Shown one piece after another: positions 26,090 through 47,388 of a DNA stretch of 64,000 nt. The notes under the pieces were generated by a model that saw only the letters and a list, made by a program, of their open reading frames with translations, was not told the origin of the DNA and made no database searches. Location: positions 102 to 64,101 of the forward strand of contig CAIVKO010000233.1 of NCBI GenBank assembly GCA_903906515.1, written 5' to 3'. The stretch comes from Akkermansiaceae bacterium (GTDB lineage Bacteria; Verrucomicrobiota; Verrucomicrobiia; Verrucomicrobiales; Akkermansiaceae). Position 1 is the stretch's first letter, and every line of letters begins with the position of its first letter. Position numbers and translations under genes: made by a program.

Positions 26090-26133
26090 CCCCCATTTGT
26101 GGGGGTAGATATTACTGGAAAGATGGCTAGATT
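26090..26133 (+). promoter_or_regulatory. Conserved box plus putative -35/-10 promoter, copy 2 (upstream of GH29)
   Basis: CCCCCATTTGTGGG-GG-TAGATA-N16-TAGATT. Confidence 0.72.
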
Positions 26134-28569: not shown

Positions 28570-29703
28570 TTACCTCAAACTTTTCCAATCGCGTGGACAA
28601 CACCCCTCGTGGCGAAGAAATATGCGGTTCATCGTGCGTGACGTTCCGAATCCGCAGGCGGAAACCAGATCCTTGATTTGTGGTGATCCGTTCCCTAACA
28701 TTATTTTTGCCTTGGACATGCGCTCGCGTAATAGGAAATCAGCGGGGGTGCACCTGAGTTCGGATCGGTAAAGGTGATAGACCGATCGGGCAGACATTCC
28801 CATGATGGCAGCAAGCTGTTCCATGTCGAAGGGCTTCTCCAAACTTATCCTGAGGTGATCAATCCCCCGCAGCAGGGCCGGATGGGTTACTGCAAGGGCC
28901 TCGGAACTCTGCCGCACCACCAACCCCAGTGGAGGAATGACCACTGATGAAGTAGGAGGTTTAGCACCAGCCATCAGTCGATCCAATAGCATCGCGCCGG
29001 CGATCGCTACTGCGTCGGGCGCGTTGTCGATGCTGGTGATCGGCACCGGAGATGTTTCGCTGGCAAGCTCGATATTACCGACGCCAACCACCGCCAGATC
29101 CCGTGGAACATTGATGCCGCATTCAATGCTCATCTCAACCGCTTCCGCCGCAAGTTGGTCGTCCATGGCGAATAAAGCGACCGGTTTTTCCAAGGCGGCC
29201 AGGTGCTTGGCCAGCCATTTTCTTCGTCGCATCCATTCGCCCTTGCCGCCCTTGCCGCGGTATTCGAGGGTCAGGCAGTCACAACCGTGGCGTGCGAGAG
29301 TATCCCGGAAACCGGAAAGACGTTCGGCGGCAACGACACCGGGTGCTGAAGTCCACCAAACAAAACGCCGGTGGCCCATTGCGAGCAAATGTTCCGCAGC
29401 CATGCGTCCCGCGGCTACATTGTCCTCGTGAACATGGGCCGTGATTTTGATCCGGGGTCGGTTGCGCTCAATCAACACCGTGGGCTGACGTGGTGCCTGG
29501 GATTTCATAAAACGAAGCACATCCATCCGCCTAGGATCCGAGACGAGCATGCCGTCTCCCGACCAACCGGCAGGCAGTGCATCGTCGAAGAAATGCCGGG
29601 TCTCAAGCAACCATCCGAACTGGCGTGCATGGCGGGCCAGCGCCAACAGTGTCCGGGGATCATGCCATCCTAACAATACAAGAACCCTGCGTTTTATTTT
29701 CAT
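28570..29703 (-). CDS. XylR-type transcriptional regulator (LacI-like sugar-binding domain + AraC HTH)
   Basis: N-terminal VHEDNVAAGRMAAEHL, LFAMDD, VVGVGN and ITSID. C-terminal AraC HTH MEQLAAIMGMSARSV...ACGFGTSRTMNRIF. Confidence 0.88.
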   Translation of the reverse strand: MKIKRRVLVLLGWHDPRTLLALARHARQFGWLLETRHFFDDALPAGWSGDGMLVSDPRRMDVLRFMKSQAPRQPTVLIERNRPRIKITAHVHEDNVAAGRMAAEHLLAMGHRRFVWWTSAPGVVAAERLSGFRDTLARHGCDCLTLEYRGKGGKGEWMRRRKWLAKHLAALEKPVALFAMDDQLAAEAVEMSIECGINVPRDLAVVGVGNIELASETSPVPITSIDNAPDAVAIAGAMLLDRLMAGAKPPTSSVVIPPLGLVVRQSSEALAVTHPALLRGIDHLRISLEKPFDMEQLAAIMGMSARSVYHLYRSELRCTPADFLLRERMSKAKIMLGNGSPQIKDLVSACGFGTSRTMNRIFLRHEGCCPRDWKSLR

Positions 29704-29816
29704 GAAAGTGCGGATTTGGTCATTGCAGTAATTGTCTTCTTTTTATTGTAAATGTCTATCGCTAATATCACGTTCTTATGGTGAAATCATCATGAAACCA
29801 GACCGTTGTTGTGATC

Positions 29817-32228
29817 ATGTCGTCATTCAGTGAATCCCATATCCGCGAAATACTCGTCGTTCATCACAGTCACATGGACGTCGGCTATACACATTCGCAG
29901 CCGGTTTTCTGGGAGTTGCAATCCGAGTATATTTTCCAGGTGCTCGACTGGCTGGAGGAAGCGACCGATCTTCCCAACGACTCTCGGCCGAAATGGACTT
30001 GTGAGGCGAGCGAACCGCTACGTCGTTGGCTGGCCAAGGCTTCTGAGACGGATGTAGCGAGGTTCGTCAAACTACACCATCAGGGGAGTATCGGTGTGTC
30101 TGCTTTGCGTTGGCACACCACTCCACTGGCCGACCGTGCGGGACTGGAGCGTCTGCTCGCTGGAAAAGTTGAATTGGAATGTCTGTTAGAAACTAAGATT
30201 CAGGTGGCATGTCAGCACGATGTAACGGGGGTTCCGTGGCCGCTTGCGGATGTGCTGCTCGATGCGGGCGTGGATTTTTTCATCATGGCCATCAACATTC
30301 ATTTGGGTCGCGCGGTGAAACCGAGACCCGGAATGTTCATGTGGGAAGCTCCATCGGGTCGCTTTCTGCGCGTTTTTAATGGTAACCATTACACGATGTT
30401 CGACCAATTGCTCCATGCGTGGGACGATTCCGTCGATAGCATGAAAGAGGGCTGGAATATCTATCAAAAACGCCTGAAGGAGTTGGATTATCCCATGGAT
30501 TTCGTTTATCTCACCTCAACCTGCTCACCGGTGATGTGGGATAATGCTCCGCCAAATCCCTTCATGCCGGATTTGATCCGTCGTTGGAATGAAGCAGGCT
30601 GCGGTCCTCGGATCCGCTATTCGACCTTTGCTGACCTGCGCGAGCGTGCCATGCGCGTGCCGAGCGAGCCATTGCCGGTGATGCGCGGAGACTGGACAGA
30701 CTATTGGAACTTTGGCTGTGCCGCTAGCCCGATCGCCACCGCACGCAACCAGCAGGCGAAATCACTGATCGATGCAGCATCCATATTAAATGGGCATGCT
30801 GTTTCCATGGATGCAGCGATGGGCAAGGTGGACCTTTATGACGAACATACCTGCGGATACTACGATTCAGATCACGCACACCCGCAGTCACAGACCACCG
30901 AAATGCTGAAACAGGCTCTCGCCCACGAAGGTCATGAACTTGCTGCGTTCGCCTTGATGGACGGGCTGGAGCGGCTGGCGCAAAACCCATCGGCCGACAA
31001 AGGCATCGATAGTGTCCTGTTCGTTAACCCCGGCCTGGAAGCGGTGACAATGAGTGTTGAACTTCCGTCCAACTGGTTTGAAGCGGCGGATGGTCGCACC
31101 TACCGAGCGAGTCGAATGTTTTACGACGGACGCTCGTGGGGCGAGCGGTTTCCGGGATTGAATGCTCGCGCGTTCGGACAGGTTCACTTGCCACCACTTT
31201 CGTGGAAATCCATACCTCTGGCCAATCTGCCGCCAGTTGCACCCCCCACGGTATTTCATCAGATCGATGTGGACGCGTCAGCCCGCCGCGAGCTCAACTT
31301 TGCGCCGGCTTCGAACCATAAGCGCCGCACTGGATACATTACCTCGCCGTTCCACCGCCTAAGCTATGATCCGGATTCCGGGCGGATTATCAGTCTGACT
31401 GATCACACGCAGGACCGTGAGGTGCTGGCACAGCGCGATGGGTTGGATCTATTCAGCTTCGTTCGTGAGCGAGCCGATGCCTTGAATGAGGATCGGCGTT
31501 ACGCATTCTACCAGCGTGATCTGAACAAAGAGAAGGTGGATGAGATGTGCTGGCAGGATTGGGTGCCGGTGCGAGAACGCGCTACCCGCGTCAAACGCTG
31601 CGATATCGTGGTTGGCAACAATCGTATCACGCTGGTTCGTGAGTTGGAGGCACCCGGCATGTTGTTTCTATCCCAGAAGATCACGTTTTCTGCAGATGAT
31701 CCGGTGATTCGGATCGAGGTGGAAATGGAATTGATTCCGGACTCTTCGCCACAAGCGGTGTATTTCGCGATCCCGCTGAAAATGAACTCGGGATGGCAGG
31801 CGATGTTTGATACAGCAGGTGTCGCAGTGCGCATGGATGATGACCAGTTGCCTGGTGCCTGCCGCAACTGGGTCACTTCTGAGGCGTTTGCCGCCATGTG
31901 GGACAAGCGTGGCGGTGTGGCATTGTTTACGCCTGACGCACCGATGATCCAGTTCGGTGATTTTCACTTCGGGCGTCCGCTTGAAAAACTTCCTCGTCCA
32001 CGAAACCCGTTGTTGCTAGCATGGCCGGTCAATAACTACTGGGATACCAATTTTCCCCGAGTGCAGGGCGGTCGCATCCGGCTGTGTTTCGGTCTCCATA
32101 CCTTCGGCGGTCCTGCGGATACTCAGGTAATAAAGGCTCTTTCGCGTAAATTCCGACAACCTTCTTTGTTATGGCCGATCACACGCAACGGTAGGAAAGC
32201 AGGAGAGGGCGGTCTTCTATCATCATAA
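29817..32228 (+). CDS. Cytoplasmic GH38-like (GH38/57 N-terminal barrel) glycoside hydrolase
   Basis: VVHHSHMDVGYTH (HxD metal motif), HDVTGVPW, GDWTDYWNFG, LYDEHTCG and NNYWDTNF. No signal peptide. A GTG start at 29811 is also possible. Confidence 0.75.
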   Translation: MSSFSESHIREILVVHHSHMDVGYTHSQPVFWELQSEYIFQVLDWLEEATDLPNDSRPKWTCEASEPLRRWLAKASETDVARFVKLHHQGSIGVSALRWHTTPLADRAGLERLLAGKVELECLLETKIQVACQHDVTGVPWPLADVLLDAGVDFFIMAINIHLGRAVKPRPGMFMWEAPSGRFLRVFNGNHYTMFDQLLHAWDDSVDSMKEGWNIYQKRLKELDYPMDFVYLTSTCSPVMWDNAPPNPFMPDLIRRWNEAGCGPRIRYSTFADLRERAMRVPSEPLPVMRGDWTDYWNFGCAASPIATARNQQAKSLIDAASILNGHAVSMDAAMGKVDLYDEHTCGYYDSDHAHPQSQTTEMLKQALAHEGHELAAFALMDGLERLAQNPSADKGIDSVLFVNPGLEAVTMSVELPSNWFEAADGRTYRASRMFYDGRSWGERFPGLNARAFGQVHLPPLSWKSIPLANLPPVAPPTVFHQIDVDASARRELNFAPASNHKRRTGYITSPFHRLSYDPDSGRIISLTDHTQDREVLAQRDGLDLFSFVRERADALNEDRRYAFYQRDLNKEKVDEMCWQDWVPVRERATRVKRCDIVVGNNRITLVRELEAPGMLFLSQKITFSADDPVIRIEVEMELIPDSSPQAVYFAIPLKMNSGWQAMFDTAGVAVRMDDDQLPGACRNWVTSEAFAAMWDKRGGVALFTPDAPMIQFGDFHFGRPLEKLPRPRNPLLLAWPVNNYWDTNFPRVQGGRIRLCFGLHTFGGPADTQVIKALSRKFRQPSLLWPITRNGRKAGEGGLLSS

Positions 32229-32244
32229 TTAATCCAATCCTAAC

Positions 32245-34083
32245 ATGTATTTTATTGACTGGTTGATTGTGACCATTTTCTTCCTCGTCGTCGTAGGCGC
32301 GGGTTTTGTATTCTCACGCAAAAGCGCGGAGAGTTCTAAATCGTATTTCCTTGGAGCGGAGAATAAGTGGTGGATGCTGGCCGCATCCGGAGCCTCCACG
32401 AATTTTTCCATCAACGGCACGGTATGGAATCTTGCGATACTGATGGTGCTGGGCATGAAATCGTTCTGGGTCACGCTGGTGTGGTGGATGCCAAACGCGG
32501 TATTCCTCATGGCGTATTCGGGCATTTGGATCCGCCGTTGCGGTGGCATCACTTCGGCAGAACTCAATCGGATCCGCTTCGGAGTCGGGACAGGGGCGAA
32601 GTGGGCACGCACGAGTTTCGCCTTTATGATCACGTTGTTTTCCGTGGCCTCTTTGTGCATGTCCTATATCATCGTTCACAAGTTTGCGGTGGTGTTCGGA
32701 CTGCCTAACAATAATGCACACGGTCTGGCCTTGGGCATCGTGGCCGTCACCAGTGTGTATGTGTTGTTCGGAGGTTTCAAAGGAGTGATCCTGAGTGAGT
32801 TTCTGCAAACAGTGGTGTTATTCGCGGTGGCATTCATCGTCGGGTTTGTCTGTTACAAACAATATTCCGCAGACCAGATCCATGCGGCGGTGACACACGG
32901 AGTCGGTGCGTCTGCGGTGAATCCAGATTACTGGAAATCACTGATGCCAGAGGCCATGCCTCGAATCGGAATGTTTGTCGCTTCAGAGGGGTACAAAGGT
33001 TGGCAGGACTTTATTGGTGCGACTCTCGCATTTTCCATCGTCGGCATGATAGGCTGTGTCGGTGGGGCAGGTGGAAGATATGGAGAACAGCGCTTCCTCG
33101 CTACGACGAATGTGAAGGAAGCCGCAAAGCTAGCGGCGTTGTGGCAGTTTCTCGGCTTTCCACGGTGGATTATGACGGCGGGTTTGTGTTTTCTCGGATA
33201 CGCGGTCTATTCTGCGGACATCGCACACGACCCGGAATGCGTGATGCCGAAATTCCTCCTGTCGGGCCTGCTTGCTCCGGGTTTGTTAGGTTTAGTTGTT
33301 GCCGGGCTTTCCGCCTCTTTCATGACAAGTTTCTGTTCGGAGATCAACGCCTGCGCGTCGATCATCGTCCGTGATATTTATCAGCCATTGATCGCCCCGC
33401 ATGTGTCGGATTCGGATCGGAAGCTGGTCAGGGTGAGCTACTTGGTGACCGGTTTTCTTGCGTTGTTGGCAGCGATCATTGGATATGCCATGGTGGAATC
33501 CCAGGCGCGAGGCGGCGGCAGTGCTCTCAACGTGATCTGGGCTTGGATGCTCGGGGGCTTGCTGACATGTTTTGTAGTGCCACTGGCCTTCCGTTGGTAT
33601 TGGGGCAGGATGAACGGTTGGGGTTTTGCTGCGGGATGTTTGTTCAGTTTGGTGCCTTCACTAGCCATGTTGGTGCGGGCGTTTGTCCCGGATGGAAATA
33701 TTTTAAAAGTCTGGCCGGAAGACCACTACACATATGCAACACTCGCCACCTCCACGCTGGCGTGCGTGCTGGTTTCGTGGATCACACCGCCGATCGAGGA
33801 TGAAACCACAACGGCATTCTATGCGCGGGTGCGTCCATTCGGCCTTTGGAGGGACGCTGCCGCCAAGGCGAGATTGGCTGGAATTCCCATGGCGACCGCA
33901 ATTCCTTTGCCGCGGATCATTGTCAATGTGGTGCTCGGTCTGATCGCCTCATTCTCCCTCTACATGGCACCGGTCTATTATCTCGGACATTGGAATTCTG
34001 AAGGGACGCTTTGTTCTGTCATCTTTGTGGTATGTTGCTGCGGACTGTATTTCACCTGGTACCGCACTCTCCCGGAGGATTAG
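32245..34083 (+). CDS. Sodium:solute symporter (SSS family), probable sugar/oligosaccharide importer
   Basis: Many TM helices. Motifs YFLGAENKWWMLAASGAS, YVLFGGFKGVILSEFLQ, SASFMTS..SEINACASIIVRDIY and WYWGRMNGWG. Confidence 0.92.
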   Translation: MYFIDWLIVTIFFLVVVGAGFVFSRKSAESSKSYFLGAENKWWMLAASGASTNFSINGTVWNLAILMVLGMKSFWVTLVWWMPNAVFLMAYSGIWIRRCGGITSAELNRIRFGVGTGAKWARTSFAFMITLFSVASLCMSYIIVHKFAVVFGLPNNNAHGLALGIVAVTSVYVLFGGFKGVILSEFLQTVVLFAVAFIVGFVCYKQYSADQIHAAVTHGVGASAVNPDYWKSLMPEAMPRIGMFVASEGYKGWQDFIGATLAFSIVGMIGCVGGAGGRYGEQRFLATTNVKEAAKLAALWQFLGFPRWIMTAGLCFLGYAVYSADIAHDPECVMPKFLLSGLLAPGLLGLVVAGLSASFMTSFCSEINACASIIVRDIYQPLIAPHVSDSDRKLVRVSYLVTGFLALLAAIIGYAMVESQARGGGSALNVIWAWMLGGLLTCFVVPLAFRWYWGRMNGWGFAAGCLFSLVPSLAMLVRAFVPDGNILKVWPEDHYTYATLATSTLACVLVSWITPPIEDETTTAFYARVRPFGLWRDAAAKARLAGIPMATAIPLPRIIVNVVLGLIASFSLYMAPVYYLGHWNSEGTLCSVIFVVCCCGLYFTWYRTLPED

Positions 34084-34274
34084 AATTTCACGAAACCAAC
34101 TGTTATAGTTTATGCGACCTTCATCTGTTATCGAAAAGGACAATACCCATCGCTCCGATGCTGAGTATCGAAACTTCACCCCACGTGAACAGATCTCTTG
34201 GACTAGAATGCTATCGCGTCTGCAAAAAGACTCAAAGTTTGTGACGAAAAAATAGTAAATTTAAGGAGAATAAA

Positions 34275-35318
34275 ATGAGTGAAATGACAGGTCTTCAACG
34301 ATGTCAGGCTGTGCTGACGGGTGAGGTTGCCGATCAGGTTCCAGTGGTGCCGCAAACATTTATGTTCGCGGCGGAGACGGCAGGAATCAGGGTTGGTGAG
34401 TTTGCCTATAATGCAGCAAAAATGGTGGAAGCACAGGTGATCAGCCAGGCAAAGTATGGCTACGATGGATGCGTGATTGATTTTGATGATGCAACATTGG
34501 CTGAGGCATGCGGGGCGAAAGTTATTTTCCGGGACTACGAACCCGCTATTGTGGATGAATCTGAACTTGTCGTCAAAGATCTAAGGGATGTTGATAAACT
34601 GAAACTTCCAGACCCTTGGAAGGATGGTAGGTTGCCGGTATGGCTGGAGGCCACCCGGTTGCTGAAAGATCGAATTGGGGATCATGTGTTCATCATGGGC
34701 CGCGCGGATCAGGGGCCGTTCAGCCTTGCCTGTCTTTTGCGGGGGCCCCAGCAGTTCATGATGGATTTATTGGATGATGAAAATATCGAACCGATCAAGC
34801 AGTTGATTGACTATTGCCGTCAGGCCTGCGCCCGGTTTGCGCTGGCGCAGAAGGAGGCGGGAGCCCATGCCACATCCATTGGCGACGCATTTGCCGGCCC
34901 GAGTTTGATCTCGCCGGCAATGTATCGTGAGTTTGCAATGGAGCCTCAGGTCCGGCTTGCTGAAGAAGTGCAGGCGGCGGGAATACCGTTCTCGATTCAC
35001 ATCTGCGGCAATACAAATGGCATTATCGCCGACATGGGCCGGACACACGCGAGAATTCTGGAAGTGGACTGGAAACTGGACATGGCAGAAGCGCGTCGCG
35101 TAGTCCCCGCGACAACGGTGCTGATGGGAAATGTGAATCCGAGCGATCCGCTTGTCCTCGGGACGCCGACAGATGTGGATGCTGCGGCGAGGAAAGTGAT
35201 AGAGGCAACTGGCGGACGCGGCTTGTTTCTGAGTTCCGGTTGTGCGATGGGACGCAACACGCCGCCTGAGAATATGAAAGCTCTGGTTTCAGCAGCCAAT
35301 AAATATGGAAAAATGTGA
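34275..35318 (+). CDS. Uroporphyrinogen-decarboxylase-superfamily protein, MtaA/CmuA-like
   Basis: GPFSLACLLRG..FMMDL, ISPAMYREF, IHICGN (H-x-C), LMGNVNP and LSSGC. The HemE RQAGR motif is absent. RBS AAGGAG upstream. Confidence 0.85.
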   Translation: MSEMTGLQRCQAVLTGEVADQVPVVPQTFMFAAETAGIRVGEFAYNAAKMVEAQVISQAKYGYDGCVIDFDDATLAEACGAKVIFRDYEPAIVDESELVVKDLRDVDKLKLPDPWKDGRLPVWLEATRLLKDRIGDHVFIMGRADQGPFSLACLLRGPQQFMMDLLDDENIEPIKQLIDYCRQACARFALAQKEAGAHATSIGDAFAGPSLISPAMYREFAMEPQVRLAEEVQAAGIPFSIHICGNTNGIIADMGRTHARILEVDWKLDMAEARRVVPATTVLMGNVNPSDPLVLGTPTDVDAAARKVIEATGGRGLFLSSGCAMGRNTPPENMKALVSAANKYGKM

Positions 35319-35511
35319 CATGGTGAATCGCAAAACTACGACGCTTACGAAAAGTGACGCTGAAACGACAGCAATATCACAGTGCCCAAGATCGAGCGCT
35401 TACGGCATCTGGATGGTGTCCGCGCTCAGGCGGCATCCGTATCCCGGCATGGAACTTCCTCTGGTTCTTCGCATTAATGAAGGATGGTCGCGTTGCCGGC
35501 GAATTTGCCTA

Positions 35512-38500
35512 TTATTTTGTGGCCACGAGACGAGCGAAGCGTTTGGTCTTGCCGCCGAACGGAATGTGGGCAACGACGTCGTTCAGACCGTTAGAATCAG
35601 GGCCGGTGACCACGAAGTTCACACCGCCGTCCTGTCCACTGGTGGCAGGGACCGGGATGGAAGTCGTCCAAGAGCCGGCACTGAGGTCATCACTGAGTTC
35701 GAGATGGAGTTGCGCCGGTGTCATGGCATCTACGCGCTTGAAATGCAGGACCAACTCGCTGCCACTGGCCTGGCTGGCGGGTAGCAACCCGGGGGTGTCG
35801 AGGGACGAATGGGTCGGAGAACCAAGAATCCATGCCATGCCGTAGGCCACACCCTCGCTGTTGAGAGAATCGAAGGCATGGCCGCCAGCCCAGCTCGTAA
35901 ACGAACCGCCGCCAGCGGCTAGCGACAATGTTTTGCCATCACCCGACACTTGGAATTGGCTGAAGGTGGCTGTCGCGCCATCAATGCGTATGTTGCCCGC
36001 TGCGACATACGCCTGATAGTCGGCCGCTCCCTTGCCGGTGATCGTCAGGGTGGCTGTGCTGCCGGATGCGAAGGTGATGTAGCCTGAGCCGAAGGTGTAA
36101 TTACCGGCGTAGCCAATCTTGCCTGCGGTCAGACTGGCGTTGCCCGAGAGCTCAACATGACCCCAGCCCCCATAACTCCCGAACGTCAGACTGCCGATGT
36201 TCGCCACCGCGTTGTCGGTCATGGTCATTTTGGATCCATTATACCCCTGTATGCTAAAGGTGTAGACACTACTGGCGCCGTTGAGGCTAGTCGCGTTGAA
36301 AGAGGCATCGCCGGACATGTTGTAAACACCCCAGCCATTAGGATTCTCACCAATCCCGAAATTACCATATTGACCGGTAATCGTGATGGAACCACCCGTC
36401 TGATTCAGAATCGCGCCGGCAGTATTATATTTGCCAACCATGAAGCTGTTGTTTTGAGGTATCACGTATTTGCCGGTGATGGTCGTGGTCGTGTTTCCAG
36501 ACGGCACCAGATTGCCCGTGATGATGTCAGTATAGGTCGCGGTGATGGTATGATTCGACCCCACGTTGCTGAACGTGTAATTGGTCGCCGGAACAACATT
36601 TACCCCATCCACCGTGAGCGTATTCACATGATAACCCAGGGCAGGCGTGATGGAATAGATTTGGTTGTCATAGTAATTGAGGGTCGTGACACCACTCGGA
36701 GTAATCGATCCGTTGGGGCTTTGGGTGGCGGTTATGGTGACGGTGGTGCCGGGCGCGAAGGTCGCGGTGATGGTATGGTTTGTCGTCACGTTGACGAATG
36801 CGTAACTGGTCGCCGGAGGCGTAACCGGGACATCATCCACCGTGAGCGTGGCGACATGATAGCCCGGGTCAGGCGTGACAGAGTAGGTGGTCGTGCTGCC
36901 GAAAGTCACCGGATTCGCGCCGGGCGGAGTGATCGTACCGTTGGTGCTTTGGGTGGCGAGGATAGTTGGGTTGGCTACCACGGGTGCAAGCGACAACGTG
37001 CTGCCCGACAATAGGAACTGGCTGATTGTCGCTGAAGCGCCATCAATGCGTATGTTGCCTGCGGCGACATACGCCTGATAGTCCGCCAACCCCTTGCCGG
37101 TGATCGTCAGGGTGGCTGTGCTGCCGGATGCGAAGGTGATGTAGCCTGAGCCGAAGGTGTAATTACCGGCGTAGCCAATCTTGCCTGCGGTCAGACTGGC
37201 GTTTCCCGAGAGTTCAACATGACCCCAGCCCCCATAACTCCCGAACGTCAGACTGCCGATGTTCGCTACCGCATTGTCGGTCATGGTCATTTTGGATCCA
37301 TTATACCCCTGTATGCTAAAGGTATAGACACTACTGGCGCCGTTGAGGCTAGTCGCGTTGAAAGAGGCATCGCCGGACATGTTGTAAACACCCCAGCCAT
37401 TAGGATTCTCACCAATTCCGAAATTACCATATTGACCGGTAATCGTGATGGAACCACCCGTCTGATTCAGAATCGCACCGGCAGTATTATATTTGCCAAT
37501 CCAGAAAAGTTGGTTCTCACCGATTATGTGAGAATCCCATTTACCCACGGTCGTGGTCGTGCTTCCTGGAGGGATAAAATTACCGGAAATCACGATTACA
37601 CCTACATTGAACGGACTGGAGGTCGCCCCTGTCAGTAAACTAGTGCTGGCGGCCAACGTTAAGCCATTCCCTACCGTCGTGGGTTTGAGATTGCTGAACG
37701 TCGCCACACCGTTGACGGCTCTCACGGTGAGGGTGCTGTCTGAAGAGATTGTTCCGCTGACCGTCACATCGGTAATGTTATCGCCGGTCACGGTATTGCC
37801 GTCGGCATCTTGCACCAACACCGTCACAGCCGGGCTGATCACTGAATCAGGCCTCGTGTTGCTCGGTTGGACGCCAAACGCCAACTTGCTGGCGGGTCCC
37901 GGATTGTTGGTCTGGGTGGAGTTGACCGAACTGGCGGCATAAGTGCCATCGCCGACATAGACCGCCCGGATGGTATGAATACCCGTCGCGAGGGTGCTGT
38001 CGGTATAGGCGGCTACCCCGCCGGAAACGTCCACAAAGGCCTTCGCTACGCCGTCCACGGAAAAGACGACCTTGCCGCTTGCCCCTGTCGCAATGACGTC
38101 GTTGGTTTTAACCGTCGCCGTGAAAACAACGTCCTGGTGATAGACGGACGGGTTGACCGAAGAGTTCAGTGTGGTGGTAGTGACAATTCCGGTCGTGTTT
38201 GTATTGAGCGCCTCATTCCAGACCTGTGCGATCTTCTGGTAACCGACCGCATTGGGATGCAAGCCGCCGACGTCCAAGTCCGTGGCGATATTCATCGCCT
38301 CATACATGGGAACGTAAACCACGTTCCGGCCAAGGGCCTGGTGGCTGGCCACGATGCCCGGGATGGTGGCGTTGTAGGCCTGCACGTCGGTCTGATGTCC
38401 GACTATGGGTGGGATCGACGCCACGTAGAGTTTCACACTTGGCCGGTAGCCATAGATGTGGTCGATAAGAACACTCAGGCGAGCCGGGGCGTTGGCCACG

Positions 38501-38922: not shown

Positions 38923-38996
38923 AGTTGTTTTTATGAATTATACTGTTCCGGTCATGCCGTGGATGAACAAGGCTAGCACCTTCTGAGTATTGGGGA

Positions 38997-39040
38997 AATT
39001 TACCTGATTACACGAGTCTGTCCATACCCACAAACGGGGG
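38997..39040 (-). promoter_or_regulatory. Conserved box plus putative -35/-10 promoter, copy 3 (drives the minus-strand SGNH surface protein)
   Basis: Reverse complement reads CCCCCGTTTGTGGG-TA-TGGACA-N16-TAAATT. Confidence 0.72.
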
Positions 39041-39129
39041 ACCGCTTGAAGGGGTGTAGGACGAAAAAGTTTAGCATGCTGTCCAGTCTGCTATTCTGCT
39101 TTAGCTCCACCTCCGTTCTCTCAAGATCT

Positions 39130-39173
39130 CCCCCCTTTGTGGGGGTAGGCAGACTCAGAAATCCGGATACATT
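39130..39173 (+). promoter_or_regulatory. Conserved box plus putative -35/-10 promoter, copy 4 (upstream of the second large operon)
   Basis: CCCCCCTTTGTGGG-GG-TAGGCA-N16-TACATT. Confidence 0.72.
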
Positions 39174-39205
39174 GTGTTTTGTTAACCGCTCGACAACCTA
39201 GTTTC

Positions 39206-44892: not shown

Positions 44893-47388
44893 ATGAAAGA
44901 AACCATTCGCGGATTATCTTTGACAGTTATCACAGTCATTGTTCTTTTCGTAGGTATGACAATGGCCGGTGCCGCTGAGACGCCCTTCAGGCGCATGCTC
45001 AATCTTGACGGCCAGTGGCAGATCGCCGAGGGCGGGATGGATAAGGCTCCCGAAAAGTTCGATCGTTCGGTTCCGGTTCCAGGACTTGTCGATCTGGCAA
45101 CTCCCGCGTTTCATGACGTCGGCATTAAAACCGGGCAACGCAGTGCGTTCTGGTATAGGCGGACATTCAAACTCGATACGATACCGTCTGTCGCACGATT
45201 GAAGGTGCACAAGGCGATGTTCGGCACTCAGGTGATTCTCAACGGGCAAGTTCTTGGTGAGCACGGGCCATCTTTCACGCCCGGATTTTTTGACGTCAAG
45301 GCCGCCCTGAAATCCGGTGAGAATGAATTGCTGATTCGCGTCGGTGCAGACCGCGACGCGGTGGGACCTTCGGTGCCATCAGGGTATGACGTAGAGAAAA
45401 CCCTCTACGTTCCTGGCATTTTTGATTCGGTCGAGTTGATTTGTTCCGGCACGCCCCACATCTTGAATGCACAGGCAGTCCCGGATATAGAGAATAAGTC
45501 GGTGCGTGTGCAAGTTAACCTGCGAAACGACGGCGAGGCGGTCAAAGGCGTCTTGAAGGTGCTTGTCCGGGAGGCCAAGTCAGGCAAGGTCGCTGGGCGC
45601 TTGACAAGTGAGGCAACAGATCTAGCGAAAGGCACCGAGGCAACGGTTGATGTTCGCATTCCTTTGGTCAACTGCCGTCTGTGGTCGCCGGAGGATCCGT
45701 TTCTTTACACGCTTGAGGTGAGTACGGTCGCTGATAATTTCACGACGCGATTCGGCATGCGATCTTTCCGATTCGATCCTCAGACCCGCCGCGCGTTGTT
45801 AAACGGGAAACCGTATTTCATGCGTGGAAGCAACCTCACACTCTACCGGTTTTTCGAGGACTCCTCCCGCAAGGCGCTGCCTTGGAACAAAGATTGGGTG
45901 CGTGCATTGCACCAGCGCGCCAAAGACATGCATTGGAACTGCCTGCGCTACAGCATCGGTTTTCCCCCCGAGTTCTGGTATGACATCGCAGACGAAGAAG
46001 GAATTCTGATTCAGGACGAATACCCATTGTGGTATTTCGAGACGCCGAAGGAATTGAAGCAAGAGCAGTTCGCGCTTGAGTATGCCGAGTGGGTGCGGGA
46101 GCGCTGGAATCATGCCTGTGTGGTGATCTGGGACGCCAGCAACGAGACCAATTCGTCCCAGACCTCGCCAGCTATCAGTAAAGTTCGTGGAATTGATTTA
46201 TCAAACCGACCGTGGGATAACAGCTATATGCCGCCTCTTGAGCCTGGTGATGCTTATGAGGTGCATCCATACCACTTCAATAATGATAAATTCAAACTTT
46301 CAGATTTGAGCAAAGCTGAACGGGTGCCACGGGCCTTTAATGTCAATGACGGTCAGCATGCCGCAATCATCAACGAATACGGCTATCTGTGGCTAAATCG
46401 CGATGGAACCCCTACAACGCTCACCGGGCAACTCTACAAGAACTTGCTAGGAAATGAATCCACTACCGAGCAACGCCGACACCTCTATGCGCGTTACATG
46501 GCTGCAGAGACGGAATTCTGGCGCTGCTATCGACAAGCGGCGGCTGTCATGCACTTTTCGTCGTTGAGCTATGCGCGTCCGAACGGTCAGACCAGCGACC
46601 ACTGGCTAGACGTGGAGAAGCTGACGTGGGAGCCGGAGTTTTACAAATATGTACGCGACGCATTCTCGCCGGTTGGTCTCATGATAGAATCGTGGGATGC
46701 TGAATATCCAGCAGGGAAGGTTACTAACATTCCAGTGATTGTCATCAACGATCTCAACGAGAAATGGTCGGGAGTAGTGCGCTTTCGCCTGCTGCGCGAT
46801 GGCAAGCCGCTGCAAGAGAAGAGTGAGACGGCCGAAATCGTAGCTTATGGCGACGTGAAGTTGACGTTTAACGTCACCATTCCCGCGCAAAGCGGGGTAT
46901 ATCAACTTGAGGCTGCGCTGATCAAGGGCAAGGCTGCTCCGGTTGTCAGCCTGCGTGACTTCGTGGTCATTACGGAAAATGAAAAGGCAGCTCGGCTCGG
47001 GTTGGCGGCGGGGAAGCCAGTTAAGGCGTCGTCGAGTCGCGAGACCGACGGTGCGTCTGTCCCCGGGTCCATCGTGGATGGGCGCGCCGATACGCGTTGG
47101 TCGTCGGACCACTCCGATGACCAGTGGATTGCAGTTGATTTGGGCAAGAAACAAATGGTTTCGCGTGTCGAGCTCGACTGGGAGAATGCGTTTGGCAGGG
47201 AGTTGGCAATAGAAGTGTCGGAGGATGGTCAGGCATGGAAGGAAGCCAAGCGCGTAAATGACAGTAGAGGCGGCCGTCAGGTGATCACGTTCGATCCGGT
47301 CGAAGGTCGCTGGATTCGGATTCACGGTATCAAGCGCGGGACCGAGTGGGGTTACTCCATTTGGGAAATGCGGGTTTTTGCAAAGTAA
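44893..47388 (+). CDS. GH2 glycoside hydrolase with C-terminal CBM32 (F5/8 type C)
   Basis: LNLDGQWQ, LWSPEDPFLY, FGMRSFRF, LNGKPYFMRG, IWDASNE and INEYG. CBM32 motif VDGRADTRWSSD...WGYSIWEMRV. Confidence 0.87.
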   Translation: MKETIRGLSLTVITVIVLFVGMTMAGAAETPFRRMLNLDGQWQIAEGGMDKAPEKFDRSVPVPGLVDLATPAFHDVGIKTGQRSAFWYRRTFKLDTIPSVARLKVHKAMFGTQVILNGQVLGEHGPSFTPGFFDVKAALKSGENELLIRVGADRDAVGPSVPSGYDVEKTLYVPGIFDSVELICSGTPHILNAQAVPDIENKSVRVQVNLRNDGEAVKGVLKVLVREAKSGKVAGRLTSEATDLAKGTEATVDVRIPLVNCRLWSPEDPFLYTLEVSTVADNFTTRFGMRSFRFDPQTRRALLNGKPYFMRGSNLTLYRFFEDSSRKALPWNKDWVRALHQRAKDMHWNCLRYSIGFPPEFWYDIADEEGILIQDEYPLWYFETPKELKQEQFALEYAEWVRERWNHACVVIWDASNETNSSQTSPAISKVRGIDLSNRPWDNSYMPPLEPGDAYEVHPYHFNNDKFKLSDLSKAERVPRAFNVNDGQHAAIINEYGYLWLNRDGTPTTLTGQLYKNLLGNESTTEQRRHLYARYMAAETEFWRCYRQAAAVMHFSSLSYARPNGQTSDHWLDVEKLTWEPEFYKYVRDAFSPVGLMIESWDAEYPAGKVTNIPVIVINDLNEKWSGVVRFRLLRDGKPLQEKSETAEIVAYGDVKLTFNVTIPAQSGVYQLEAALIKGKAAPVVSLRDFVVITENEKAARLGLAAGKPVKASSSRETDGASVPGSIVDGRADTRWSSDHSDDQWIAVDLGKKQMVSRVELDWENAFGRELAIEVSEDGQAWKEAKRVNDSRGGRQVITFDPVEGRWIRIHGIKRGTEWGYSIWEMRVFAK

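Follow-up and report, generated by a model that had tools for sequence, protein, structure and literature searches.

The window analyzed here is a stretch of 64,000 nucleotides of contig C233 (CAIVKO010000233.1, positions 102 to 64,101) from the genome of a freshwater Akkermansiaceae bacterium (GCA_903906515.1; 4.48 Mb, 96% complete), and the subject of the analysis is one of its genes, denoted UroD1, which encodes a protein of the uroporphyrinogen decarboxylase (UroD) superfamily. UroD1 closes a region (positions 28570-35318) that is flanked by two long operons of secreted carbohydrate-active enzymes (CAZymes), including glycoside hydrolases (GH) of the families GH95, GH127, GH43, GH78, GH29, GH27 and GH2 as well as SASA and GDSL esterases. 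Pfam searches recovered all four genes that an earlier note on this DNA had placed in the region, those for a regulator, a GH38-like enzyme, an SSS importer and the UroD-like protein; a fifth element, the remnant of a cupin gene between the last two, had been overlooked. The features are as follows:

28570-29703, minus strand: XylR-type regulator (Pfam Peripla_BP_3, 2.8e-30, residues 103-267; AraC HTH_18, 1.6e-15, residues 297-374)

29704-29810, no strand: divergent intergenic region, without the promoter box of the secreted-CAZyme operons (k-mer comparison of intergenic regions)

29811-32228, plus strand: GH38-like glycosidase P0002, 805 amino acids (aa) (Pfam GH38 N-domain only, PF01074, 4.1e-11)

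32245-34083, plus strand: SSS importer, 612 aa, starting 16 bp after the GH38-like gene (Pfam SSF, 6.4e-15)

34112-34255, plus strand: cupin-gene remnant, 47 codons and a stop (tblastn, 64% identity to the C-terminus of the L024 cupin; frame translation)

34275-35318, plus strand: UroD1 (P0001), 347 aa, with its own AAGGAG ribosome-binding site (URO-D, 1.5e-66; MtaA/CmuA, 1.7e-51)

UroD1 is predicted from its sequence to be an MtaA-like protein of the zinc methyltransferase family and not HemE, in agreement with the earlier note. On the hemE equivalog model (TIGR01464) the protein scores 76.4 bits against a cut-off of 302.95, the scores on the MtaA-type models range from 146 to 189 bits, and the N-terminal substrate-binding motif of HemE is not present in the translation on inspection. 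Among solved structures, MtaA of Methanosarcina mazei (4AY7; E 3.3e-31, full-length alignment) is the nearest, with its HICGN and GC motifs in register with those of UroD1, whereas the relationship to CdmB is distant (E 7e-5). The metal-site residues are His242, Cys244, Glu263 and Cys323, with HIC at positions 242-244 and SSGC at 320-323; all four belong to the 66 positions that are invariant across 67 orthologs, and every one of these 66 residues is present in the protein of the window. In the comparison with a sister strain, the dN/dS ratio of UroD1 is 0.14, next to 0.08 for the SSS gene and 0.12 for the GH38-like gene. Like P0002, UroD1 has no hydrophobic N-terminal leader, which all other enzymes encoded in the window possess (judged by eye), as had been noticed before.

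More than 1,100 relatives of UroD1 were found in the protein collection, and relatives are labeled 'uroporphyrinogen decarboxylase' in several public sources. The orthologs proper, identified in data comprising one genome per species, number 67, are 54-87% identical, and come from seven phyla (Verrucomicrobiota, Lentisphaerota, Planctomycetota, Acidobacteriota, Bacteroidota, Spirochaetota and Firmicutes). In flanks of up to 10 kb around these 67 loci, the genes most often encountered are those for a cupin of 135 aa (33 loci), an MFS/sugar-porter transporter (30) and a GH38 enzyme of the Parabacteroides distasonis type (28), followed by a corrinoid protein (18), a CobW/activation protein (17) and UroD2, a second MtaA-like enzyme (16). 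The cupin gene often overlaps the start of UroD1, and the gene of the corrinoid protein immediately adjoins UroD1 at 16-18 loci in two phyla. In P. distasonis, the ortholog of which is 68% identical to UroD1 and for which the index of the assembly collection lists 3,315 blocks, the gene order is LacI, GH38, MFS, UroD1, corrinoid protein, UroD2, 135-aa cupin, CobW/MetH-activation protein, SusC and SusD; in some Firmicutes, as in the Bacteroidales, the genes next to UroD1 include those for a corrinoid protein, an activator and a further MtaA-like enzyme. The usual operon of Verrucomicrobia consists of the cupin, UroD1, a Sugar_tr porter (461 aa) and a secreted GH38 enzyme (1,033 aa), preceded by an AraC gene on the opposite strand. 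Given that in these bacteria a secreted mannosidase is paired with a porter of the monosaccharide type, the substrate of the cytoplasmic UroD1 is suggested to be a modified monosaccharide. Altogether, a sugar context (GH38, sugar porters, sugar regulators) surrounds UroD1 in five phyla, so that the neighborhood analysis of homologs proposed in the earlier note bore out the link to sugar genes; an aldose epimerase and a ROK kinase are also found among the examined neighborhoods of UroD-type genes.

Two loci depart from these arrangements. In one Lentisphaerae genome (L132), UroD1 is accompanied by an aldo/keto reductase, an amidohydrolase_2 protein, a zinc alcohol dehydrogenase, an MFS transporter and GH32-, GH42- and GH20-like genes, with neither GH38 nor the cupin. 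In Solibacter (L037/L131:8255-10023), the start of UroD1 and the end of a tetrapyrrole methylase gene overlap, with a sulfite/nitrite reductase gene further upstream; the link to the tetrapyrrole methylase is not conserved at other loci and was dismissed as chance.

The MtaA-type enzymes depend on a separate corrinoid protein, and the earlier note had described UroD1 as an orphan in this respect. This holds for the contig, where no B12-binding domain was found, but fails genome-wide. The search of the host genome for corrinoid proteins and RACo yielded a single MtaC-type corrinoid protein (C208:19889-20518, 209 aa), with B12-binding_2 and B12-binding domains and the DxHxxG motif, the gene of which is divergent from a PF02574 homocysteine S-methyltransferase gene (1.9e-63). 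Another contig, C48, combines a DUF1638 gene (5.1e-38), a complete RACo/RamA gene (1.7e-69; Fer2, middle and ASKHA domains) and an AraC regulator; no homolog of the CobW/MetH-activation protein of Bacteroidales was found in the host genome, which has RACo instead. The genome's other B12-domain matches belong to MetH, methylmalonyl-CoA mutase, a regulator resembling CarH and a radical SAM protein. Beside MetH (C35), the pterin-binding PF00809 proteins are FolP (C228) and a DHPS-like protein encoded at C213:10157-11137 on the minus strand (3.9e-54), a candidate pterin-binding module for a split methionine synthase.

Relatives of the host rarely have these genes. Among 201 sampled genomes of the order, the host genome is the only one with a UroD1 ortholog; seven other genomes of the genus have no ortholog and a single B12-binding_2 match each, which is MetH, and RACo is absent in all five genomes of the genus that were tested. 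At the level of the family, RACo is present in two of 61 genomes, the other being G231, which has no UroD1 ortholog and only distant MtaA-like paralogs (best 34% identity); because RACo occurs there without UroD1, the activation machinery appears to be tied to MtaA-like proteins generally and not to UroD1 alone. Of 25 genomes in which UroD1 lacks an adjacent corrinoid protein, 21 encode a small corrinoid protein elsewhere and 19 encode RACo. The distant corrinoid loci of these genomes often hold a UroD-like gene together with an activator, or a homocysteine methyltransferase, and in one Bacteroidales genome the corrinoid protein, the activator and UroD2 form a module at a locus apart from UroD1.

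Taking the observed family, motifs, neighborhoods and trans-encoded partner genes of UroD1 together, the scenario that we prefer, and which we consider about evenly balanced between right and wrong, is that UroD1 acts on a methylated sugar in a corrinoid-dependent transfer of methyl groups. Under this scenario, the regulator, the GH38-fold glycosidase and the SSS importer would provide for the uptake and cleavage of an oligosaccharide. UroD1 would be an MtaA-type methyltransferase that depends on zinc and uses a separate corrinoid carrier protein; it would bind the methylated sugar freed by the GH38-fold enzyme and transfer its methyl group to the C208 corrinoid protein in the Co(I) state. The PF02574 homocysteine S-methyltransferase encoded next to the latter would then move the methyl group to homocysteine to give methionine, and RamA/RACo and the DUF1638 protein of C48 would re-reduce the cofactor after accidental oxidation. 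Inferred here are the direction of the transfer, the involvement of the C208 proteins, the sugar itself and the element, O, S or Se, to which the methyl is attached. That the sugar is of the methyl-mannose type is a guess. A mannoside-type substrate is favored by the pairing of UroD-like proteins that share the His/Cys/Glu/Cys site with three very different clades of GH38-fold enzymes, namely that of the window, that of the P. distasonis and verrucomicrobial (Pd/Ver) type, and that of an operon on another contig of the host genome, C114 (see below).

Several observations weigh against this scenario. At 49 of the 67 loci there is no corrinoid protein within 10 kb, and the most constant partner of UroD1 is a cupin of unknown function rather than a corrinoid protein. 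Four of the 25 genomes mentioned above, which may be incomplete, lack both RACo and a small corrinoid protein. In Acidobacteria and Spirochaetes UroD1 stands alone, without a sugar context, and none of the 67 ortholog loci of other species has a GH38-like gene of the window type or an SSS gene beside UroD1, this pairing being found only in the species studied here. The proteins encoded on C208 and C48 may have partners other than UroD1, such as the MtaA-like paralog on C187. UroD1 does not reach the cut-offs of the curated MtaA/CmuA models (175.5 bits vs. 235.4 for TIGR01463; 189 vs. 244 for NF004889), none of the RNA sequencing runs contains the UroD1 gene, and, given the deletion of the cupin gene, the pathway may be decaying in this strain. 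Finally, the His-Cys-Cys zinc sites of the UroD superfamily have been assigned to S-/Se-methyl chemistry, whereas the O-demethylases have carboxylate ligands (PMC10418091, Kountz and Balskus). By this assignment, the methyl group may sit on S or Se, or else UroD1 may be the enzyme of the acceptor side. Of the role proposed in the earlier note, methyl transfer on a modified sugar is retained as the best reading, and the O-methylated sugar specifically is weakened by the same site.

The cupin, as the most frequent neighbor of UroD1, was analyzed separately. Its conserved residues, His43, Asp47, Glu48, His90, Glu104 and His109, are those of a metal-type cupin; the structural model is of high quality (pLDDT 95.6), and its fold matches only 3D0J, a structural-genomics entry of unknown function, and generic cupins. 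A profile search over 1.84 billion representatives returned about 800 families, and among the 150 best profile matches there is no fusion to a UroD or corrinoid domain. The sole large fusion is a metagenomic protein of 428 aa (P0374), in which a distant cupin homolog is joined to a lactonase-type beta-propeller (by eye) and which may hint at sugar-lactone chemistry in the wider cupin family.

In the window, the gap of 191 bp between the SSS gene and UroD1 holds what is left of the cupin gene after an in-frame deletion of 405 bp between short GAAAAG repeats, as can be traced in the L128 alignment and the junction sequences. In sister strains (93-95% DNA identity) the cupin gene is intact, with 183 codons, and the order is GH29, GH38-like, SSS, cupin and UroD1, the last four genes being separated by 16, 28 and 16 bp, which looks like a working operon of this species. 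Both forms are also present in independent contigs: X1, from the run that best matches the window, carries the deletion, and X5, X6 and X8, from other studies, are intact. Given that X5 keeps the cupin and shows only three differences from the window in 580 bases, the deletion appears to be very recent, so that decay could not yet show either way. A second copy of the cupin was not found in the host genome. Two open reading frames (ORFs) downstream (35305-35784 and 35354-35845), considered as candidates for the missing cupin, were rejected, having neither similarity to it nor a Pfam family. With the cupin deleted, the step performed by UroD1 may be weakened in this strain. The homology of the UroD1 region to that of its relatives ends exactly at gene borders.

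The genes upstream of the remnant have a history of their own. P0002 scores 43.2 bits on PF01074 (cut-off 25) and has no match in the PDB by sequence or profile search, but its AlphaFold model (pLDDT 82.9) gives full-length Foldseek matches to GH38 mannosidases. The best of these is 2WYI (E 4e-27, TMq 0.66), and the set comprising 2WYI, 7UFU, 6LZ1 and 1HTY spans E 1e-25 to 4e-27, TMq 0.6-0.67 and 830-990 columns. Four motifs that resemble the metal and catalytic motifs of GH38 enzymes, H19-S-H21-x-D23, H136-D137, GDW (293-295) and DEH (344-346), show no variation among 24 homologs. On the strength of this model, P0002 is predicted to be a cytoplasmic, very divergent GH38-fold glycosidase. It shares with SpGH38 of Streptococcus pyogenes (2WYH/2WYI) the full-length multi-domain fold, a putative N-terminal His/Asp metal motif, the cytoplasmic location and the adjacent importer, but differs from the GH38 alpha-mannosidases in its low identity to them (11-13%) and in that its family is linked to GH95/GH29 fucosidase genes, for which reason its specificity may also differ. 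The members of this family (56-93% identical; Verrucomicrobia and Actinobacteria) always lie beside an SSS or ABC importer and near GH95/GH29 genes, without UroD, and the pair of GH38-like and SSS genes is kept in L123, L125 and L126.

The regulator, in which a periplasmic-binding-protein-like sensor domain is fused to a C-terminal AraC-type helix-turn-helix domain, the XylR architecture, is encoded divergently from P0002. In a sister strain, the segment 26209-29794, with a GH29 fucosidase and this regulator, is replaced (L123:5365-7416) by another GH29 gene without a regulator; the product of the replacement gene is 77% identical to the second GH29 enzyme of the window, at 47378. The view that the four genes form one conserved module is therefore not supported, since the GH38-like and SSS genes are found elsewhere without UroD, none of the 67 loci in other species pairs them with UroD1, and the regulator is missing in the sister strain. 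The locus joins two units, one consisting of the regulator, the GH38-fold glycosidase and the SSS importer, and the other being the remainder of the cupin-UroD1 pair.

Among the alternatives to corrinoid-dependent methyl transfer on a sugar, two appear unlikely to much the same degree. One is that UroD1 and the cupin form a corrinoid-independent zinc enzyme acting on a sugar derivative; the reaction might be a direct transfer of an alkyl group onto a thiol, of the kind catalyzed by MetE and epoxyalkane:CoM (coenzyme M) transferase, a decarboxylation or an isomerization, and the corrinoid genes of Bacteroidales would belong to UroD2. The prominence of the cupin (33 of 67 loci, often overlapping the start of UroD1), the 49 loci without a nearby corrinoid protein and the four genomes without both corrinoid protein and RACo are all as expected from such an enzyme, and the H-x-C...E...C spacing of UroD1 fits the sites of the MetE type as well. 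However, RACo and small corrinoid proteins are strongly enriched in the genomes that encode UroD1, UroD1 abuts the corrinoid gene at the 16-18 loci in two phyla, and in the window it is intact and constrained without any cupin; moreover, we know of no corrinoid-independent activity of the UroD fold besides that of HemE. The other alternative, for which we would claim no greater likelihood, keeps the corrinoid and changes the substrate: UroD1 would be a corrinoid-dependent S-/Se-methyltransferase, like MtsA, MtaA or Mlp, that either takes the methyl group from a methylthio or methylseleno donor, which may be a thio- or seleno-sugar, or adds one to a thiol acceptor, the sugar being only the carrier or the context. 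MtaB activates methanol, that is, an oxygen atom, via a Glu/Cys/Cys zinc site, so that Cys ligands do not exclude O-methyl substrates for UroD1. In favor of this alternative, the invariant His-Cys-Cys(+Glu) site shows the coordination assigned to S/Se methyltransferases (PMC10418091), the closest relatives of UroD1 are CoM methyltransferases, and the layout in Bacteroidales, with two MtaA-like proteins, a corrinoid protein, an activator and no folate methyltransferase, resembles the type 1 mlp clusters. Set against these similarities, no genes of sulfur or selenium metabolism were seen in the neighborhoods examined, where GH38, porters, sugar regulators, aldose epimerase and ROK kinase are found instead.

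Still less likely, in our estimate, is that UroD1 of the window is no longer functional and is left over from an operon in decay, parted from the cupin and from the porter and secreted GH38 enzyme that accompany it in other Verrucomicrobia. Such a fate would be in line with the strain-specific deletion of 405 bp, with the lack of a second cupin copy and with the exact coincidence of the end of homology with gene borders. The ORF, however, is intact, with all 66 residues invariant in the family and a strong ribosome-binding site, and its dN/dS of 0.14 is similar to those of the neighboring genes; the intact cupin in the nearly identical contig X5 (3/580 differences) dates the deletion as too recent for decay to show either way. 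As for a true uroporphyrinogen decarboxylase (HemE) of heme synthesis, which the Pfam URO-D match and the public names of the relatives would suggest, it hardly merits consideration given the score on the hemE model (76 bits vs. 303), the missing N-terminal motif, a Cys zinc site that is foreign to HemE and the context of sugar genes.

The preferred scenario, methyl transfer from a sugar to a corrinoid protein, can be compared with several known systems. UroD1 has the same fold as MtaA, MtbA and MtsA (4AY7/4AY8), with the zinc motifs in register; it differs from these enzymes in falling below the curated cut-offs, in its context of sugar uptake and hydrolysis, in its constant cupin partner and in a corrinoid protein that is often encoded in trans, and its host is not a methanogen and has no known coenzyme M (genes of CoM biosynthesis were not searched for). 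The biological setting of UroD1 is different from that of the known MtaA/MtsA-type enzymes. The type 1 mlp clusters, in which Mlp1-3 are combined with a corrinoid protein and Ram/RACE, are found mostly in Firmicutes, beside sulfur/selenium genes (PMC10418091). They are similar to the UroD1 systems in that MtaA-like His-Cys-Cys proteins of non-methanogens are involved, several paralogs share one corrinoid protein and activase, and the cluster includes no folate methyltransferase; the difference lies in the neighbors of UroD1, GH38, sugar porters and the cupin. Sugars, Bacteroidetes and Verrucomicrobia are not mentioned for the mlp clusters (PMC10418091), and the clustering of Mlp2 and Mlp3 with a corrinoid protein and Ram/RACE by which type 1 is recognized is not seen in the window, which has one UroD-family gene, no corrinoid protein and no activase.

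In the marine Rhodobacteraceae Ruegeria and Phaeobacter, the MtgBCDE system, a split methionine synthase that provides a precedent, comprises a standalone corrinoid protein that is shared by the glycine betaine demethylase and a standalone homocysteine module, with reactivation by RamA and DUF1638 (PMC12478193). The host genome encodes the same four kinds of protein, the corrinoid protein, the homocysteine module, RamA and DUF1638, but the donor enzyme of MtgBCDE belongs to the MttB family (pfam06253), acts on glycine betaine and needs the pterin-binding MtgD, whereas the candidate donors here are of the UroD family. OdmB, VdmB, MtvB and CdmB share the fold of the UroD superfamily and move the methyl group of their substrates to a corrinoid protein, as proposed for UroD1; however, they have carboxylate or no Cys ligands (PMC10418091), and they act on chloromethane or aromatic methyl ethers rather than on sugars. 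A description of corrinoid-dependent methyl transfer in sugar catabolism was not found in full-text searches of the literature, in which PMC10418091 and PMC12478193 were the nearest reports.

If UroD1 is a B12-dependent sugar demethylase, it would represent a new class of accessory enzymes in glycan degradation, would link the supply of vitamin B12 to the use of fiber and glycans in the gut and in lakes, and would allow methyl groups of sugars to feed methionine synthesis directly. Methylated sugars are common in the glycans of algae, plants, fungi and invertebrates. The 6-O-methyl-galactose demethylase of marine porphyran degraders, a cytochrome P450, removes a sugar methyl ether in the course of polysaccharide use in an oxygen-dependent reaction that releases formaldehyde. 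Because the only sugar demethylase known to us needs oxygen, the handling of methylated sugars by anaerobes appears to be an open question; the proposed UroD1 system, with an unrelated fold, would be oxygen-free and would conserve the methyl group. In its most far-reaching form, which we offer tentatively and consider doubtful, UroD1, the cupin and the corrinoid protein would together be the first enzyme system to demethylate sugars independently of oxygen. This would be a widespread accessory step in the breakdown of glycans, which strips methyl groups from mannose-type sugars and conserves them, in the host genome by channeling them into methionine via the split methionine synthase. Such a step would occur in gut Bacteroidales (Parabacteroides, Alistipes), freshwater Verrucomicrobia, Lentisphaerae, Planctomycetes and Firmicutes, with, for example, methylated mannoses from the glycans of algae and invertebrates as substrates. 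Regardless of the reaction, the UroD1 family is extremely conserved, abundant in human gut metagenomes and misleadingly annotated as a heme enzyme. The window is a slightly decayed example, and the complete cluster in cultured Parabacteroides is the cleanest experimental system; given that cultured strains carry this cluster, the idea is directly testable.

The host genome contains 14 URO-D matches in total, with paralogs of UroD1 on C187, C114, C210, C9, C4, C170, C156, C96, C145 and C10. In the alignment of UroD1 with 12 full-length paralogs, the metal site is His/Cys/(Glu or Asp)/Cys in four proteins, His-x-Cys...His in six and His-x-Asp with His or Gly in three, so that, judged from the aligned residues, these proteins seem to represent three uncharacterized classes of metal site. 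The operon on C114 (C114:46369-56116) consists of an AraC gene followed by those for a secreted GH38 enzyme (977 aa), a UroD protein with the His/Cys/Glu/Cys site (350 aa), a ROK kinase, a 585-aa protein similar to mannose-6-phosphate isomerase and a Sugar_tr porter; the 585-aa protein has the QVHP motif of mannose-6-phosphate isomerases and no Pfam match.

With respect to regulation, scans for promoters and terminators gave numbers of sites not above those in shuffled sequence. The k-mer comparison of intergenic regions detected a shared box, CCCCC.TTTGTGGG(3-5 nt)..G.CAGACTC, 5' of three secreted-CAZyme operons, which is absent from both 29704-29810 and 34084-34274, so that the earlier observation that the unit does not carry the box stands. 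The sites of the box are as follows:

approximately 960-995: one site

26095-26120: one site

38923-39178: two sites

In the divergent region between the GDSL and GH95-like genes the box is present in both orientations. It is probably either the site of a common regulator or an alternative-sigma promoter site.

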